DNA of 43,693 bases. Origin: a virus (taxonomy: Duplodnaviria; Heunggongvirae; Uroviricota; Caudoviricetes). This document shows positions 16,384-23,236 of this stretch, in pieces (the stretch's first letter is position 1; each line of letters starts with the position of its first letter). The notes under the pieces are model-generated. The model ran no database searches, was not told the origin of the DNA, and saw only the letters and a program-made list of their open reading frames with translations. Position numbers and translations under genes: made by a program. The stretch lies in IMG/VR virus record IMGVR_UViG_2698536506_000010, one strand, 5' to 3'.

Positions 16384-16496
16384 ACCAAGCCGATTTCCTC
16401 CGTTACCAGGCAGAAAGCGTTAAGCGCGCCAGCATGCCGCCAGTAGCAAAGCACAGCCAGACCAAAACCAACCAGCCTCAGAAGGAAGCCGCATAA
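16380..16496 (+). CDS. Hypothetical small ORF (38 aa) between ninG and Q
   Basis: ATG overlaps the ninG stop and its stop overlaps the Q start; no similarity recognised. Confidence 0.25.
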   Translation: MNQADFLRYQAESVKRASMPPVAKHSQTKTNQPQKEAA

Positions 16497-16996
16497 TGAA
16501 ACTGGAATTAACCAACGACCAGCATCAATGGGTAGACCAGTGGCTCCAGTTGTGGGGCGCATGGTGCCAGACCGGCAAGATTGATAAAGCGATGATCAAC
16601 ATGATTGCCAGATTCATGGCTACCGTCGAGCCCCAGCAAGCATCACGACCGGTATGTAGTGATGATGACGGGATGCTCATTGATGCTGTCATTCGTCACT
16701 ATCTGAAGAATGTGGATGAAAATGCCTGGCGGGTTGTCTTCGCCTACTACGTTTGTAACTCCAGCGAGATCCGAATTGCATCATGGCAGCATGCAGTAAG
16801 TAAGCCTCGCCTGATGAAGACGCGTGGCGGAAATCAGTATAAACACCCAAGCATCTCGACAATCCGTAGAGAGGTGAAGCAAATCATCAATGCCTCACTG
16901 TTCTGTTTGTACCAACCGCTGCAAAATGCGTTTAACAATCGCGAAAATGTGAGGAAAATTGCAAAAAATCCTCATAACGCGCTTGCTTTTCAATGA
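16496..16996 (+). CDS. Q: Putative late-gene antiterminator Q (166 aa)
   Basis: Last gene before the terminator cluster and the lysis cassette; GAAGGAAG RBS; family assignment mostly positional. Confidence 0.5.
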   Translation: MKLELTNDQHQWVDQWLQLWGAWCQTGKIDKAMINMIARFMATVEPQQASRPVCSDDDGMLIDAVIRHYLKNVDENAWRVVFAYYVCNSSEIRIASWQHAVSKPRLMKTRGGNQYKHPSISTIRREVKQIINASLFCLYQPLQNAFNNRENVRKIAKNPHNALAFQ

Positions 16997-18635: not shown

Positions 18636-19319
18636 ATGTCTGCTTGGGAGTGTCCTTTTTGCGGTAGGTTGGCTGTTTATGATTCAATGCAGAAAAAACG
18701 TGATAGCTTCTCAGTTTCTGGGGATACCAAGTTTGGAGTCCTCGTTTTCGAGTCTTTCGTAAACATCTGCCCAAACCCAGAATGCAAAGAATTTACATAC
18801 ATTACAACGATGTCTACAGGAAAATATCAGGCCGGTTACTATATACCTGATGATCTCCTAGAGACGTGGGTTAACAGGCCTAACGGAATTTTTAAACAGT
18901 TTCCTGATTATGTGCCGAAGCCGATTTTAGATGACTATAAAGAGGCGGTCTTAATCAAAAACCTTTCACCTAAAGCTTCTGCAACTTTGTCACGCAGGTG
19001 TCTTCAAGGAATGATTAGGAGCGTCTGGAATGTTAAGCCCGCGAGACTTGTTGACGAAATAAAAGCCATCGAGGGGCAGATTGAATCGAATGTTTGGAAA
19101 GCAATCGATGCCGTAAGGAATATTGGCAACATTGGCGCTCATATGGAAAATGATATCAATATCATTGTTGATGTCGATCCAGACGAAGCTGAGATGCTGA
19201 TAGGCCTCCTCGAGCTTCTGATTCAAGAGTGGTATGTTGAAAAGCATGAAAGGCAACTACGAATTGACGCCATTACCGCTTTAGCGGCTGAGAAAAAAGC
19301 ATTAAAACAAACAAAATAA
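18636..19319 (+). CDS. Zinc-ribbon plus DUF4145-domain protein, candidate defence or abortive-infection effector (227 aa)
   Basis: N-terminal CPFCG...CPNPEC zinc ribbon; C-terminus matches the DUF4145 pattern (LSPKASATLSRRCLQGMIRSV...AIDAVRNIGNIGAHMEND...DPDEAEMLIGLLELLIQEW); AT-rich relative to the backbone; GGAGG RBS; own terminator. Confidence 0.6.
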   Translation: MSAWECPFCGRLAVYDSMQKKRDSFSVSGDTKFGVLVFESFVNICPNPECKEFTYITTMSTGKYQAGYYIPDDLLETWVNRPNGIFKQFPDYVPKPILDDYKEAVLIKNLSPKASATLSRRCLQGMIRSVWNVKPARLVDEIKAIEGQIESNVWKAIDAVRNIGNIGAHMENDINIIVDVDPDEAEMLIGLLELLIQEWYVEKHERQLRIDAITALAAEKKALKQTK

Positions 19320-19341
19320 ACCGCCTACGGGCGGTTTTTTG
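19318..19341 (+). terminator. Rho-independent terminator, possibly bidirectional
   Basis: CCGCC-tacg-GGCGG hairpin flanked by an A-run upstream and TTTTTT downstream. Confidence 0.6.
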
Positions 19342-19406
19342 TTGCCATCACCATGGGGTAGCCCATCGTAATGGCAATATCCACATAAGCGGATAGAGAG
19401 GCCTCA

Positions 19407-19610
19407 ATGTCCGACACCTACCAAATCACTATCACCACTACATCGAAAGATACGTTCACTGGCACGATGAATCGAAGCCAGCCTGAAATCGTTAATGGGT
19501 TCGTGGCATTGGCTACCGACACGGGTGAATGGCGTTACTTTCGGCCGGACAGCGTGGAGCAGTTCCACTTTGTACCAGTGTTAGAAGAAAAAGCATCAGA
19601 GGACGCTTAG
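19407..19610 (+). CDS. Hypothetical small protein (67 aa) in the accessory island
   Basis: GAGAGG RBS; Thr-rich N-terminus; no family recognised. Confidence 0.4.
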   Translation: MSDTYQITITTTSKDTFTGTMNRSQPEIVNGFVALATDTGEWRYFRPDSVEQFHFVPVLEEKASEDA

Positions 19611-19633
19611 TTGCCGCCCCCTGATGGGATTTG

Positions 19634-19807
19634 TTACTGATCTACCATTACACTATGAATAGTAAGGCCGTTCTTATCTTTGAAAACCACCGTTAAAGGC
19701 AATTCTTTGTCTTGTTCTGGGTTCCCTGTTTTGAGAGAGAGGACATCAATTTTCAATTCATAATTCCCAGTACTGATAAGCATTTTTGCGAAGTCTTCGA
19801 GTGTCAT
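19634..19807 (-). CDS. Hypothetical small protein (57 aa), AT-rich, minus strand
   Basis: Perfect AGGAGG RBS 5 nt before the internal ATG at 19807 (track start is TTG); convergent with the 19407 ORF. Confidence 0.4.
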   Translation of the reverse strand: MTLEDFAKMLISTGNYELKIDVLSLKTGNPEQDKELPLTVVFKDKNGLTIHSVMVDQ

Positions 19808-19865
19808 TATTCCTCCTGTTAAAACCATATTATCGGGAAGTGGCACATAACCTTTAAGGAAATAT

Positions 19866-20303
19866 ATGGCGACCAAACAAAAAACTGGCCGCCCTTCTGA
19901 TTATTTACCAGAGGTGGCTGCTGACATCTGCTCACTGCTTGCCGATGGGGAAAGCCTGCGCAAAGTTTGTGATCGACCAGGGATGCCTAACAAGGCGACG
20001 GTGTTCCGCTGGCTGGCGCAGCATGCAGAGTTTCGCGACCAATACGCGAAAGCCACTGAGACACGCGCTGATGCGATTTTCGAAGATATGTTCGATATTG
20101 CTGACGGTGTGAATGAAGAGGCTGCCGCAGTAGCTAAAGCACGTCTTCGCATTGACACGCGAAAATGGGCCCTGGCCCGCATGAACCCGAAGAAGTACGG
20201 CGACAAAGTCAGCCAGGAAATCGACCACAAATCATCTGACGGAACCATGACCCCAAAGCCAACAATCATCCAGCTACTACCTGTTGAGCCAAAGCATGAG
20301 TAA
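19866..20303 (+). CDS. terS: Terminase small subunit
   Basis: Immediately upstream of and overlapping the large terminase; HTH-like N-terminus (GRPSDYLPEVAADICSLLADGESLRKVC). Confidence 0.7.
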   Translation: MATKQKTGRPSDYLPEVAADICSLLADGESLRKVCDRPGMPNKATVFRWLAQHAEFRDQYAKATETRADAIFEDMFDIADGVNEEAAAVAKARLRIDTRKWALARMNPKKYGDKVSQEIDHKSSDGTMTPKPTIIQLLPVEPKHE

Positions 20304-21543
20304 CGCCGTTCAACTGCCGATCCCCGCCAAGCTTGCACCACTGTTCACCGCCGTGAATAAGCGTTACCGGTGCTCTCACGGCGGACGCGGTAGCGCCAAG
20401 ACGCGCACATTTGCGCTGATGACTGCAGTTAAGGCGTATCAGTCGATGATGAACGGTGAAAGCGGCGTAGTGCTCTGTGCGCGTGAATTCATGAACTCGC
20501 TGGAAGAGTCGAGTATGCAGGAGGTGAAACAGGCGATCCTGTCTGTACCGTGGCTGGCTTCCAACTTTGATATCGGCGAGAAGTACATCCGCACCATCGA
20601 CAAGAGCGTTAACTACGTGTTCTGCGGTCTGCGGCATAACCTCGACAGCATCAAGTCGAAAGCGCGCATCCTGCTGTGCTGGGTTGATGAAGCGGAATCA
20701 GTCAGCGAAATTGCCTGGCAGAAGCTGAGCCCGACCGTTCGTGAAGAGGGGTCAGAGATTTGGGTGACGTGGAACCCGGAGCGAGACGGTAGCGCCACGG
20801 ATAAGCGTTTCCGCAAAGAGGCAGGCGACGACTGCATCACCGTTGAAATGAACTATACGGATAACCCGTGGTTCCCTGATGTGCTGGAAGGCGAGCGACA
20901 GAACGATCAGCGCCGCCTCGACCCGGCAACATACGCATGGGTGTGGGAAGGGGCTTATCTCGAAAACTCCGATAAGCAGGTACTGGCCGGGAAATACCGG
21001 ATTGCTGAGTTCTCGGACCAACTATGGAAAGAGGCCGAACGTCTGTTCTTCGGTGCTGACTTCGGTTTCGCCAAAGACCCTAACACGTTGGTGCGTTCGT
21101 TCATCCTGCATAACCGGCTGTACATCGAATACGAGGCATACGGTCAGCAAACTGAGCTCGACCACATGCCAAAGCTGTACGACACGATTCCAGGTGCGCG
21201 TGACTGGCCCATTAAAGCCGACTCCGCTCGACCCGAGACGATCAGCTATCTAAAGCGGCAGGGCTTCAACATCTCAGCCGCTGAGAAATGGCAAGGAAGC
21301 GTTGAGGACGGGATCGCACACCTTCGCGGATTCGACGAAATCATTATCCATCCGCGCTGCAAGAATGTGGCGCGAGAGGCCCGCATGTGGTCGTACAAAA
21401 CAGACCGCATTACTGGCGAGGTGCTGCCGAAACTGGCCGACGGCTATGAACACTGCTGGGACGGTATCCGCTACAGCCTAGACGGGCACATTAAGCGTAA
21501 AGGCCAGATGGCCGGGATGATGATCCCAAAACGGCTGCGATAA
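20296..21543 (+). CDS. terL: Terminase large subunit (ATPase/nuclease)
   Basis: Walker A-like CSHGGRGSAKT, Walker B-like LLCWVDEAE, C-terminal nuclease-like region; ATG at 20296 (track start is TTG). Confidence 0.85.
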   Translation: MSNAVQLPIPAKLAPLFTAVNKRYRCSHGGRGSAKTRTFALMTAVKAYQSMMNGESGVVLCAREFMNSLEESSMQEVKQAILSVPWLASNFDIGEKYIRTIDKSVNYVFCGLRHNLDSIKSKARILLCWVDEAESVSEIAWQKLSPTVREEGSEIWVTWNPERDGSATDKRFRKEAGDDCITVEMNYTDNPWFPDVLEGERQNDQRRLDPATYAWVWEGAYLENSDKQVLAGKYRIAEFSDQLWKEAERLFFGADFGFAKDPNTLVRSFILHNRLYIEYEAYGQQTELDHMPKLYDTIPGARDWPIKADSARPETISYLKRQGFNISAAEKWQGSVEDGIAHLRGFDEIIIHPRCKNVAREARMWSYKTDRITGEVLPKLADGYEHCWDGIRYSLDGHIKRKGQMAGMMIPKRLR

Positions 21544-21544
21544 T

Positions 21545-21573
21545 TTGTACGAATACCAAGCGAAGTCATAATT
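21545..21573 (+). promoter_or_regulatory. Candidate sigma-70 promoter (TTGTAC-N17-ATAATT) for the 21603 moron
   Basis: Good -35/-10 spacing about 30 nt upstream of the moron start. Confidence 0.4.
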
Positions 21574-21602
21574 AAACTCCCGCCATATGATTCGGAGGTT
21601 TT

Positions 21603-21836
21603 ATGCATAGCTTTGAGCACTTGGTTGCAGAAATAAGAGAAGAGTTAAGGCTTAGAGGGCTTGAGCATTCATCGCTAATTTTTACTAAGCTTGCTCAGCA
21701 ATACGCCCCTTACTATCAATCATTCGAACCTGAAAGAAAAGAGGCGTTACTGCTAAAGCTTAAGGCGCTTGAGAGAAGCGTGGGGCTACAGAAACCATTT
21801 GATTGGGAATCAGCCCTCTCAACGAAAAAAGAATAG
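21603..21836 (+). CDS. Hypothetical small protein (77 aa), moron between terminase and portal
   Basis: GGAGG RBS, own candidate promoter and terminator, AT-richer than flanking structural genes. Confidence 0.45.
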   Translation: MHSFEHLVAEIREELRLRGLEHSSLIFTKLAQQYAPYYQSFEPERKEALLLKLKALERSVGLQKPFDWESALSTKKE

Positions 21837-21857
21837 GTCGCTCAGGCGGCCTTTTTT
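21836..21857 (+). terminator. Rho-independent terminator after the moron
   Basis: GGTCGC-tcag-GCGGCC hairpin (one G-U pair) followed by TTTTTT. Confidence 0.5.
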
Positions 21858-21886
21858 ATTGCCATAAATCCACCACCGGACAATCC

Positions 21887-23236
21887 ATGAATGACAAATT
21901 AACTCTCGCCGTCAACCATGCGTTGAACGATGCGCGGATGGCTCGCGCCCGTATGGGGCTGATGGCGCCTACAATGGGGCTGGACAACAAGCGCCACTCT
22001 GCATGGTGCGAGTATGGATTCCCTGAGCAGGTAACCTACGAAAACCTTTATGCCCTGTACCGACGCGGTGGTATTGCCCACGGCGCAGTAGAGAAACTGG
22101 TGGGCAAGTGCTGGCAGACTAACCCGGAAATCATCGAGGGTGATCAGGCAGACAAAAAGCGCAAAGAAACCGCCTGGGAGAAAAAGGCCAAACAGGTATT
22201 CACCAACCGATTCTGGCGCTCATTCTCTGAGGCCGATCGCCGTCGTCTGGTGGGCCGTTATGCTGGCATCCTTCTGCACGTCCGCGATGAAAAAGACTGG
22301 AACCTTCCGGTAACCAAAGGGCGAGGTCTTCAGAAAATATCGGTGGCGTGGGCAGGATCGCTTACGGTGAGCGAGTGGGACACTGGCCTGAACTCGAAGA
22401 CGTACGGCCAGCCTCAGATGTGGCAGTACGCCGAACGCTTGCCGAATGGTTCAAGTCGCCGCGTCAATATCCACCCCGATCGCGTTTTCATCCTTGGTGA
22501 TTACTCAGACGATGCTATTGGCTTCCTTGAGCCAGCTTATAACGCCTTTGTAAGCCTGGAGAAGGTAGAGGGTGGATCCGGCGAGTCATTCCTGAAGAAC
22601 GCCGCGCGCCAGCTTAATGTCAACTTTGAGAAGGAAATCGACTTCAACAATCTTGCGTCACTTTATGGCGTGAGCATTGACGAGTTGCAGGATAAGTTTA
22701 ACGAAGTTGCCGGGGAAATGAACCGTGGCAACGATGTTTTGATGACAACCCAAGGGGCCACGGTCACACCGCTGGTGACTGCTGTAGCTGATCCTTCAGC
22801 GACCTATAACGTCAACCTGCAAACGGCTGCCGCCGGTGTTGATATCCCGACGCGCATTCTGGTTGGTAATCAGCAGGCCGAGCGCTCCAGCACCGAAGAC
22901 CAGAAATACTTTAATGCTCGTTGTCAGTCGCGACGCGTAGACCTCTCTTTCGAAATAGAGGACTTCTGCGACAAGCTTATCGATCTACAAATCGTAGACT
23001 CAGTCAGTCAGAAGGCTGTTATCTGGGATGACCTTAACGAACAGACCGGTACTGAGAAGCTCACTAACGCCAAGACCATGGGCGAAATTAACCAGACCAT
23101 GCAGGGCAGCGGCGAAGAGCCAGCGTTCAGCCGTGAAGAGATTCGTACAGCTGCGGGTTATGACAATGACGACGAAGAGCCGTTAGGAGAAGAGGATGGC
23201 GACGAACAAGACGAAGCCACCAATTCTACCGCGTAA
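21887..23236 (+). CDS. Putative portal protein (449 aa)
   Basis: Large protein immediately after the terminase with an acidic C-terminal tail; start placed after the moron terminator; assignment mainly positional. Confidence 0.6.
   Translation: MNDKLTLAVNHALNDARMARARMGLMAPTMGLDNKRHSAWCEYGFPEQVTYENLYALYRRGGIAHGAVEKLVGKCWQTNPEIIEGDQADKKRKETAWEKKAKQVFTNRFWRSFSEADRRRLVGRYAGILLHVRDEKDWNLPVTKGRGLQKISVAWAGSLTVSEWDTGLNSKTYGQPQMWQYAERLPNGSSRRVNIHPDRVFILGDYSDDAIGFLEPAYNAFVSLEKVEGGSGESFLKNAARQLNVNFEKEIDFNNLASLYGVSIDELQDKFNEVAGEMNRGNDVLMTTQGATVTPLVTAVADPSATYNVNLQTAAAGVDIPTRILVGNQQAERSSTEDQKYFNARCQSRRVDLSFEIEDFCDKLIDLQIVDSVSQKAVIWDDLNEQTGTEKLTNAKTMGEINQTMQGSGEEPAFSREEIRTAAGYDNDDEEPLGEEDGDEQDEATNSTA

Follow-up and report, generated by a model that had tools for sequence, protein, structure and literature searches.

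A probable mobile moron between the terminase and portal genes of a lambdoid Escherichia coli prophage

Morons and other accessory loci of tailed phages

Morons are where temperate phages hold genes that alter host fitness, exclude rivals or counter immunity, and most of them are uncharacterised. Examples from lambdoid phages are the gp15 moron of HK97 and lambda bor, and the morons of this group were reportedly described by Juhala and colleagues in 2000. A related kind of locus is found in Mu-like Pseudomonas phages, where anti-CRISPR loci sit in the head module.

Two sets of described morons lie close to the packaging or head genes. The re-annotation of SPP1 calls ORFs 3-5 and ORFs 8-10 morons, the former lying between the large terminase gene gp2 and the portal gene gp6 and the latter between gp7 and the scaffold gene gp11 (PMC6316719). 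The Tai/Ati proteins of phi80 occupy moron loci near the packaging genes, and Tai-type systems have been reported at a hot spot upstream of the small terminase gene terS (PMC11364771). Phage accessory regions and their genes have also been the subject of a screen (Silas et al., bioRxiv 10.1101/2023.04.06.535777). This article describes a small cassette in an E. coli prophage, wedged between the large terminase gene (terL) and the gene for the portal, and compares it with these systems.

The prophage and its cassette

The window, meaning the whole stretch of DNA that was analysed (43,693 nucleotides; IMG/VR record IMGVR_UViG_2698536506_000010), is a lambdoid prophage whose head module is of the ES18/SPP1 type. 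Upstream of the cassette, on the same strand, are genes for NinB, a phosphatase, NinG, the antiterminator Q (16496-16996), a holin, a lysozyme and Rz. After Rz come small AT-rich genes, then terS (Sf6 type) and terL. Downstream lie a portal gene of the Phage_portal_3 family, a head-morphogenesis gene resembling Mu F and SPP1 gp7 (Mu-F below) and more head genes. The nearest named relatives of the portal region are phage ES18 and Enterobacter phage CobraSix. Positions 21200-22200 are 100% identical to three complete E. coli chromosomes, in which NCBI names the product of the cassette's 77-aa ORF WP_001514193.1, a hypothetical protein. The cassette and its flanks are laid out as follows.

20296-21543, plus strand: large terminase subunit gene (terL), the left flank; Pfam Terminase_3 and Terminase_3C, and the NCBI annotation in an identical E. 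coli record
21544-21862/21863, plus strand: the cassette between terL and the portal gene, with promoter-like site, ribosome binding site, ORF and terminator
21544-21602, plus strand: upstream block of candidate promoter and 5' leader, cassette-specific by its homology pattern
21545-21550, plus strand: -35-like hexamer TTGTAC, from reading the sequence
21567-21572, plus strand: -10-like hexamer CATAAT, after a 16-nt spacer and ending 30 nt ahead of the ATG
21594-21598, plus strand: Shine-Dalgarno sequence GGAGG, its GGnG columns invariant across contexts
21603-21836, plus strand: 77-aa ORF with an ATG start, from its phrog_27105 match and dN/dS
21835-21857, plus strand: rho-independent terminator with a 7-bp stem, the loop TCAG and six T, overlapping the ORF stop codon
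21836-21863, plus strand: 28-nt generic terminator module GGTCGCTCAGGCGGCCTTTTTTATTGCC, with exact copies behind unrelated ORFs; the right end of the insert
21887-23236, plus strand: portal gene, the right flank; Pfam Phage_portal_3 and PHROG portal

On the left there is no gap, with the terL stop codon TAA (21541-21543) touching the start of the cassette. On the right, CCACCGGACAATCC ahead of the portal gene is the counterpart of the short terL-portal spacer found in relatives that have nothing inserted here. The first-pass annotation described the cassette as AT-richer than the structural genes around it, and this is borne out: its GC content is 42.9% (GC3 41%), compared with 55.9% for terL (GC3 68%) and 53.6% for the portal gene (GC3 61%). 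The GGAGG ribosome binding site that it named is present at 21594-21598, and a scan recovers the proposed rho-independent terminator as the hairpin and T-run at 21835-21857. The site proposed as promoter, given as TTGTAC-N17-ATAATT, is present too; with the -10 shifted by one base, it reads here as TTGTAC-16-CATAAT.

Some neighbouring features deserve mention in their own right. One of the AT-rich genes between the lysis genes and terS (18636-19319, plus strand, 41% GC) belongs to DUF4145, matches the PADLOC model PD-T7-4 (E = 1.3e-12) and is followed by a bidirectional terminator-like hairpin (19318-19337). This gene is a candidate for a prophage-borne anti-phage defence moron. The adjoining stretch (19320-19865, 45% GC) holds a 67-aa ORF (19407-19610, plus strand) and a convergent ORF of 57-80 aa (19634-19876, minus strand). 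Neither of the two matches any family, and terminator-like hairpins stand at their ends. The stretch looks like further accessory cargo just 5' of terS.

On the other side of the cassette, the gene at 21887-23236 goes by the name 'anti-CBASS protein Acb1 family protein' in all E. coli records that were looked at, a name given by the NCBI pipeline. According to Pfam (Phage_portal_3), PHROGs and the annotation of ES18 ('present in virion') the same gene encodes the portal. The Acb1 name is probably a propagated misnomer.

The large terminase ends in the tail GMMIPKRL(R/Q) (window 21511-21540), which is also present in L003, L183 and L032. This tail is kept across otherwise unrelated terminase types whenever they adjoin this portal family. 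Among the terminases that share it are one with an overall identity of just 24% and one with a length of 492 aa versus 419. It looks as if the last few codons of terL were functionally part of the portal module, perhaps for docking to the portal.

The slot between terminase and portal

Is the space between terL and the portal gene a place where DNA is habitually inserted? Portal relatives were taken from phage records plus one genome per species, and the distance from terminase to portal was measured. Eight relatives with the same portal family have a gap of just 14-21 nt (L031, L032, L034, L036, L037, L038, L040 and L051), and the Klebsiella phages ST13-OXA48phi12.5 and vB_Kpn_RAH1 are among these eight. 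In other relatives the slot is filled with unrelated cargo, namely ORFs of 51-139 aa. There is a 119-aa ORF in E. coli XJ5.2, a 66-aa ORF in E. coli HL15, gp3 plus gp4 in ES18 and a 138-aa membrane-like ORF in CobraSix, and in further relatives the slot contains an ORF of 91 aa or small zinc-ribbon-like ones (51-52 aa). Family searches assigned no known function to these other cargos. The insert always lies between the terL stop codon and a CCAACGGACAAxCC motif ahead of the portal ATG. In other words, the pattern among relatives marks the terL|portal junction as a real insertion slot and a recombination hot spot.

These relatives also bear on what had been said of the slot beforehand. The idea that lambdoid phages usually have no gene here is right only among relatives that share the head module, since phages of the lambda type have a small gene, W, in this position, as phi80 illustrates. 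Conservation of the ORF as part of the structural operon of related phages had been named among the observations that would count against a moron. Instead, the ORF is absent from the eight relatives and is replaced by unrelated ORFs elsewhere.

Another view of the slot comes from comparing the window with L021. Their amino-acid identity is 100% for terS, 99% for terL, 92% for the portal and 98% for Mu-F. In the middle of this the ORF is only 36% identical at the protein level, and the upstream block is 68% identical at the DNA level. So sharp a divergence of one ORF between near-identical phages has the look typical of exchanged or fast-diversifying accessory genes.

The slot of L007 holds something else besides the cassette. 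Its cassette terminator is followed, ahead of the portal gene, by about 140 nt that resemble a tRNA remnant (L007 4260-4400; similar in L046). They contain a D-arm-like AACTCAATCGGTAGAGT and a T-arm GGTTCGAGTCC, with an insertion mid-way and a second terminator after. ARAGORN called no tRNA at L007 4260-4400.

The 77-residue protein

The protein has a mass of 9.1 kDa and a pI of 6.8, and no hydrophobic segment in it is long enough for a transmembrane span. Its sequence had been called helical-looking. AlphaFold2 agrees and gives a model of four helices (residues 4-18, 25-38, 43-60 and 68-73) with a pLDDT of 77.8. The product is thus predicted to be a soluble four-helix protein that is roughly neutral.

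The protein matches phrog_27105 (PHROGs v4, unknown function) over its full length (residues 1-77 of 77, E = 4.2e-55), and the distant homologues P0021-P0024 and P0027 match this family also. Neither the protein nor its distant homologues match anything in Pfam or NCBIfam, and the window protein and four distant homologues had no match in PADLOC-DB at E <= 1. The initial statement that no family is recognised is therefore right for Pfam, NCBIfam and PADLOC but not for PHROGs, where there is a family of unknown function. A profile search against PDB sequences gave best E values of 0.2-0.25 (a PP2A B56 subunit and a putative type VI secretion protein), which were non-significant on inspection. 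The fold-match search of the model listed no informative match, and there is no catalytic signature in the 77-aa protein. One homologue, P0022, is a 185-aa fusion, but its C-terminal half is an orphan and offers no Rosetta-stone clue. A literature search for WP_001514193 returned nothing. In summary, the structure prediction and profile search that had been suggested as a check yielded four helices and phrog_27105, but no functional match.

Several identities were tried and rejected. Hha and YmoA are similar to the 77-aa protein in size and helix count. An Hha/YmoA-like modulator of H-NS was dismissed on the grounds that there is no Pfam match and that Hha is not among the listed fold matches. 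The protein has a pI of 6.8 and is hence not acidic, which disposes of a DNA mimic of the Ocr type. An anti-CRISPR (acr-aca) locus was rejected since the cassette has a single gene in all contexts, without an adjacent helix-turn-helix aca gene. A known anti-phage defence protein was discarded for want of a PADLOC-DB profile match. Finally, a tblastn search against 50,697 phage records, phi80 included, turned up nothing to suggest the Tai/Ati tail-assembly-inhibition system (phi80 orf63/orf64).

A small and mobile family

Among 5.8 billion clustered proteins, 19 clusters share 75% identity or more with the 77-aa protein, and all of these come from Enterobacteriaceae or metagenomes. When 1.84 billion representatives were searched exhaustively with HMMER, no more than 7 clusters emerged in all, and just six of them were additions, of more distant members. 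Homologous protein clusters come to 27, the most distant being about 34% identical. When the 77-aa protein was compared by tblastn with the 50,697 phage records, nothing was found at E <= 0.01. The family is thus absent from cultured phage genomes and therefore was not in the screen of Silas et al.

Residues conserved across relatives of 34-47% identity include F4, G19, A31, Y38, G61 and F66-D67-W68. Between clades, pS is at least 0.8 (saturated), as against a dN of about 0.12, and those dN/dS ratios that can be estimated lie at 0.02-0.26. These values point firmly to strong purifying selection on the 77-aa ORF.

The family is found in a variety of places. It occupies the terL|portal slot in the window, L007, L021, L183 and 11 IMG/VR contigs, and does so beside three terminase types. 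Homologues lie 5' of a Terminase_2-type terS in other phage types, and between Mu-F-like and scaffold-like genes in Enterobacter hormaechei prophages. One homologue, the 185-aa fusion, adjoins traX on a contig that also has an IncFII repA gene. Another is in a chromosomal island flanked by an insertion sequence, and yet another in a decayed prophage remnant near tonB in Enterobacter. The gene points in the direction of the late genes in every phage context seen, and there is no conserved partner gene across all of the settings of the family. This distribution indicates that the 77-aa ORF moves as a unit between genomic positions and mobile elements.

The Enterobacter remnants by tonB (L012-L015) have kept the promoter block and the ORF; their terL and portal genes are reduced to fragments, and an insertion sequence lies alongside. 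Here a 1-nt change in an A-run near the 3' end lengthens the ORF to 96 aa, so that it crosses the terminator. This 96-aa version occurs in 84 blocks of the contig index.

The upstream block

A generic promoter scan makes no call at TTGTAC-16-CATAAT, because the -35 matches at just 3/6 positions. Under a criterion that was set post hoc (TTG in the -35, a spacer of 16-18, and a -10 that has A2 and T6 and matches at 5/6 positions or more), there are 5 sites in the 43.7-kb window, counting both strands. By the same post-hoc criterion, the chance of one such site per 75 nt at this composition is about 0.013.

The comparison of contexts is more telling. Across seven aligned contexts, homology begins about 60 nt 5' of the ATG, which is exactly at the -35, and there is no alignment among them any further upstream. 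Wherever members of the clade with at least 75% identity are found, the block accompanies the ORF. Between the two clades it is 54-63% identical, as against 23-38% farther upstream. It is also better conserved than synonymous sites, which are saturated (more than 80% differ), and therefore the block is under selection. The promoter-block motif occurs in IMG/VR solely together with the 77-aa ORF family.

Within the block, it is the promoter-like elements that stay in place. The -35 is TTGTAC in the window, TTGTGA in L007, TTGCGA in L021 and TTGAGA in L183, and in each of the four it is followed after a spacer of 16 nt by the -10 CATAAT. In these occupants of the terL|portal slot the -10 ends 27-31 nt ahead of the ATG, and L012 has CATAAT too, with the same spacing and distance. 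The pattern TTGnnn-16-CATAAT is kept although at the protein level L021 and L183 share just 36-38% identity with the window ORF. In L183 the sequence of the spacer has changed, but the promoter geometry has not. A part of the spacer, CAA-CGA-G, is conserved as well. A plain promoter fails to explain this, but a regulator site or recent common ancestry could.

Some contexts would leave the ORF silent if it relied on its neighbours. L016 has a terminator 5' of the cassette, and in L008 and L023 the upstream gene is on the opposite strand. Therefore, a promoter of its own would be required there. However, the promoter is not equally apparent throughout the family. In the second clade the homologous -10 is a weaker TATGCT, with a 15-nt spacer in one member. 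A clear promoter is absent in the homologues L024, L023 and L027, which are in the Mu-F|scaffold slot, the island and a plasmid-like contig. In the Mu-F|scaffold slot merely 40 nt separate Mu-F from the homologue, which may simply ride the late operon. As to a leader hairpin that sequesters the Shine-Dalgarno sequence, this idea was rejected: by eye just 4 bp pair, and the pairing is not conserved.

The terminator module

The hairpin (21835-21852) and its T-run (21852-21857) have a predicted energy of -13.3 kcal/mol (z = -2.0), and a rho-independent terminator is found 3' of the ORF in every context aligned. The terminator is by no means peculiar to this family. The 28-mer is present as an exact copy in 116 IMG/VR contigs (loci L054-L169), behind at least 26 unrelated small-ORF families. 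The genes downstream of the copies differ, and a conserved WKAAATC often comes directly after the 28-mer. The module ends other cargos of the terL|portal slot as well. In addition, about 42 bp (21824-21865) recur at about 95% identity in P22-like E. coli prophages, after a DUF551 gene. Taken together, this marks the 28-nt terminator as a generic module that is common to many cassettes. The copies are identical in sequence and not in structure alone, which suggests a shared recombination joint. Thus, the 28-mer may be where homologous recombination swaps cargo between slots.

What does the terminator say about expression? A transcriptome study of LF82 found no moron in prophage Gally, and part of the terminator stretch is present in Gally. 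Therefore, the terminator alone is no predictor of lysogenic expression.

Rfam gave only sub-threshold matches at the cassette. One of them (21780-21863, plus strand) is to the Hfq-binding sRNA STnc250, at 20.1 bits compared with a gathering score of 42. The match takes in the 3' end of the ORF as well as the terminator, but the terminator by itself probably accounts for it.

What the cassette might be

The observations make it likely that the cassette is a mobile moron in the terL|portal hot spot of a lambdoid E. coli prophage with an ES18/SPP1-like head module. The proposal of a self-contained moron in the first-pass annotation has fared well in this respect, as the empty slot, the mobility, the conserved upstream block, the terminator and the composition all appear to agree with it. 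The cassette would have three parts: a sigma-70-type promoter with its leader (21544-21602), the 77-aa ORF and a generic intrinsic terminator. If lambdoid biology is a guide, the cassette's own promoter would support weak constitutive transcription in the lysogen, ending at 21857. After induction, Q-antiterminated polymerase coming from terL would cross the whole cassette, ignore its terminator and continue into the portal gene. With this read-through the protein would also be made late in infection. It should be dispensable for virion assembly and, to judge from its properties, would most likely bind another protein, either of the host or of a competing mobile element; in this way it might keep out rival phages, act against a defence system or tune the host.

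One can go a step further and speculate that the 77-aa family are new small helical inhibitors, carried by phages, a plasmid-like element and a chromosomal island, which act against host immunity or else against rival phages or satellites. The reasons are that alleles only 36-38% identical are swapped between phages whose flanks are 92-100% identical, that the family is rare (7 clusters in 1.84 billion representatives) and that it has a portable candidate promoter. By analogy, such allele swapping, rarity and portability would fit an arms-race accessory gene. This is a tentative idea, and on balance a doubtful one.

What if the upstream block does not initiate transcription at all? In this hypothetical scenario the cassette has no functional promoter. 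Its ORF is accessory cargo, for instance a factor for counter-defence or takeover, which is expressed only on the Q-antiterminated late transcript of lytic growth, and the conserved block serves translation or mRNA stability instead. The weak -35 would be expected then, as would the orientation of the gene along the late genes in every phage context seen and the lack of a terminator between terL and the ORF in the window. The homologue in the Mu-F|scaffold slot, with its 40-nt gap and no clear promoter, fits too. Against it, a -35 and a -10 keep their 16-nt spacing in alleles whose proteins are 36-38% identical, even where the spacer itself differs (L183). Furthermore, L016 behind its terminator and L008 and L023 behind opposite-strand genes need a promoter. 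An unlikely explanation, then, although one with several observations on its side. A different kind of explanation is a structural one. Between terL and portal, lambda and phi80 encode gpW, a protein of similarly small size (68 aa in lambda), which raises the idea of an analogous head-completion or head-tail joining factor. Such a role sits badly with the absence of the ORF from eight relatives that have the same portal and Mu-F head module, with the unrelated ORFs found in others, and with the occurrence of the ORF outside phages. It also has to contend with the foreign composition, the cassette's own terminator, the lack of a Pfam match of any kind and an all-helical predicted fold, whose listed matches include no phage protein for head completion or for joining heads to tails. 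The probability of a gpW analogue must be considered very low. Lower still, and close to nil, is that of a spurious ORF, or a non-coding spacer whose terminator merely ends terL transcription. The ORF is indeed short and without a Pfam or NCBIfam family. Nevertheless, a dN/dS of 0.02-0.26 across saturated synonymous divergence, 27 homologous clusters with conserved motifs and a confident AlphaFold2 model are not what is expected of noise.

If the cassette is a mobile moron, it is an unusually well delimited one. There are relatives with an empty slot, both ends are defined, the candidate promoter is portable and divergent alleles exist in isogenic backgrounds. This makes it a clean candidate for plating or defence-library screens. 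By itself the cassette adds one further unknown small protein to a familiar category, and changes no concept.

Comparison with described systems

Three of the features by which morons are recognised in the definition of Juhala and Hendrix are seen here: the neighbouring genes are adjacent in relatives (eight of them, 14-21 nt apart), the cassette has its own terminator (a -13.3 kcal/mol hairpin with six T) and its composition is distinct from that of its neighbours. For a fourth, a promoter of its own, there is a good candidate in silico, although one that the generic scan passed over. The definition also asks for transcription from the repressed prophage, which the candidate promoter would provide. 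Like the cassette with its candidate promoter, the lambdoid morons consist of promoter, ORF and terminator between late genes that are adjacent in relatives, are atypical in composition and are dispensable. The products are a point of difference, being a membrane protein or lipoprotein there and a predicted soluble, cytoplasmic, helical protein here. SPP1 has a comparable head module (portal, Mu-F/gp7-like gene, scaffold), and its morons lie in two slots of it that both have members of the 77-aa family in other phages (the window and L024). SPP1 is a lytic Bacillus phage, and the likeness to it is one of slot position. In the closest named phages, the terL|portal slot is taken up by genes 3 and 4 of ES18 (NC_006949) and by the 138-aa ORF of CobraSix (NC_071003). 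The annotation of ES18 places a putative terminator after gene 3, and the terminator of the CobraSix cargo is near-identical to that of the cassette, with one loop base different. However, the cargo proteins are of other families than the cassette's (phrog_3439, phrog_6169 or none).

The likeness extends to phage accessory genes more generally, which are also small, fast-diverging and non-essential, and lie in a variable region that has conserved core genes on both sides. Unlike anti-CRISPR loci, the cassette has no adjacent aca-like helix-turn-helix regulator. The gpW gene of phi80 (lambda type) lies between terL and portal too and is similar in size to the 77-aa ORF. In contrast to gpW, the window ORF lacks conservation among relatives, its predicted fold is all-helical, and it has its own candidate promoter and terminator. 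The one full-length match, phrog_27105, is to a family without functional information. The cassette is probably another moron in a known moron slot, and its protein comes from the uncharacterised small family phrog_27105.
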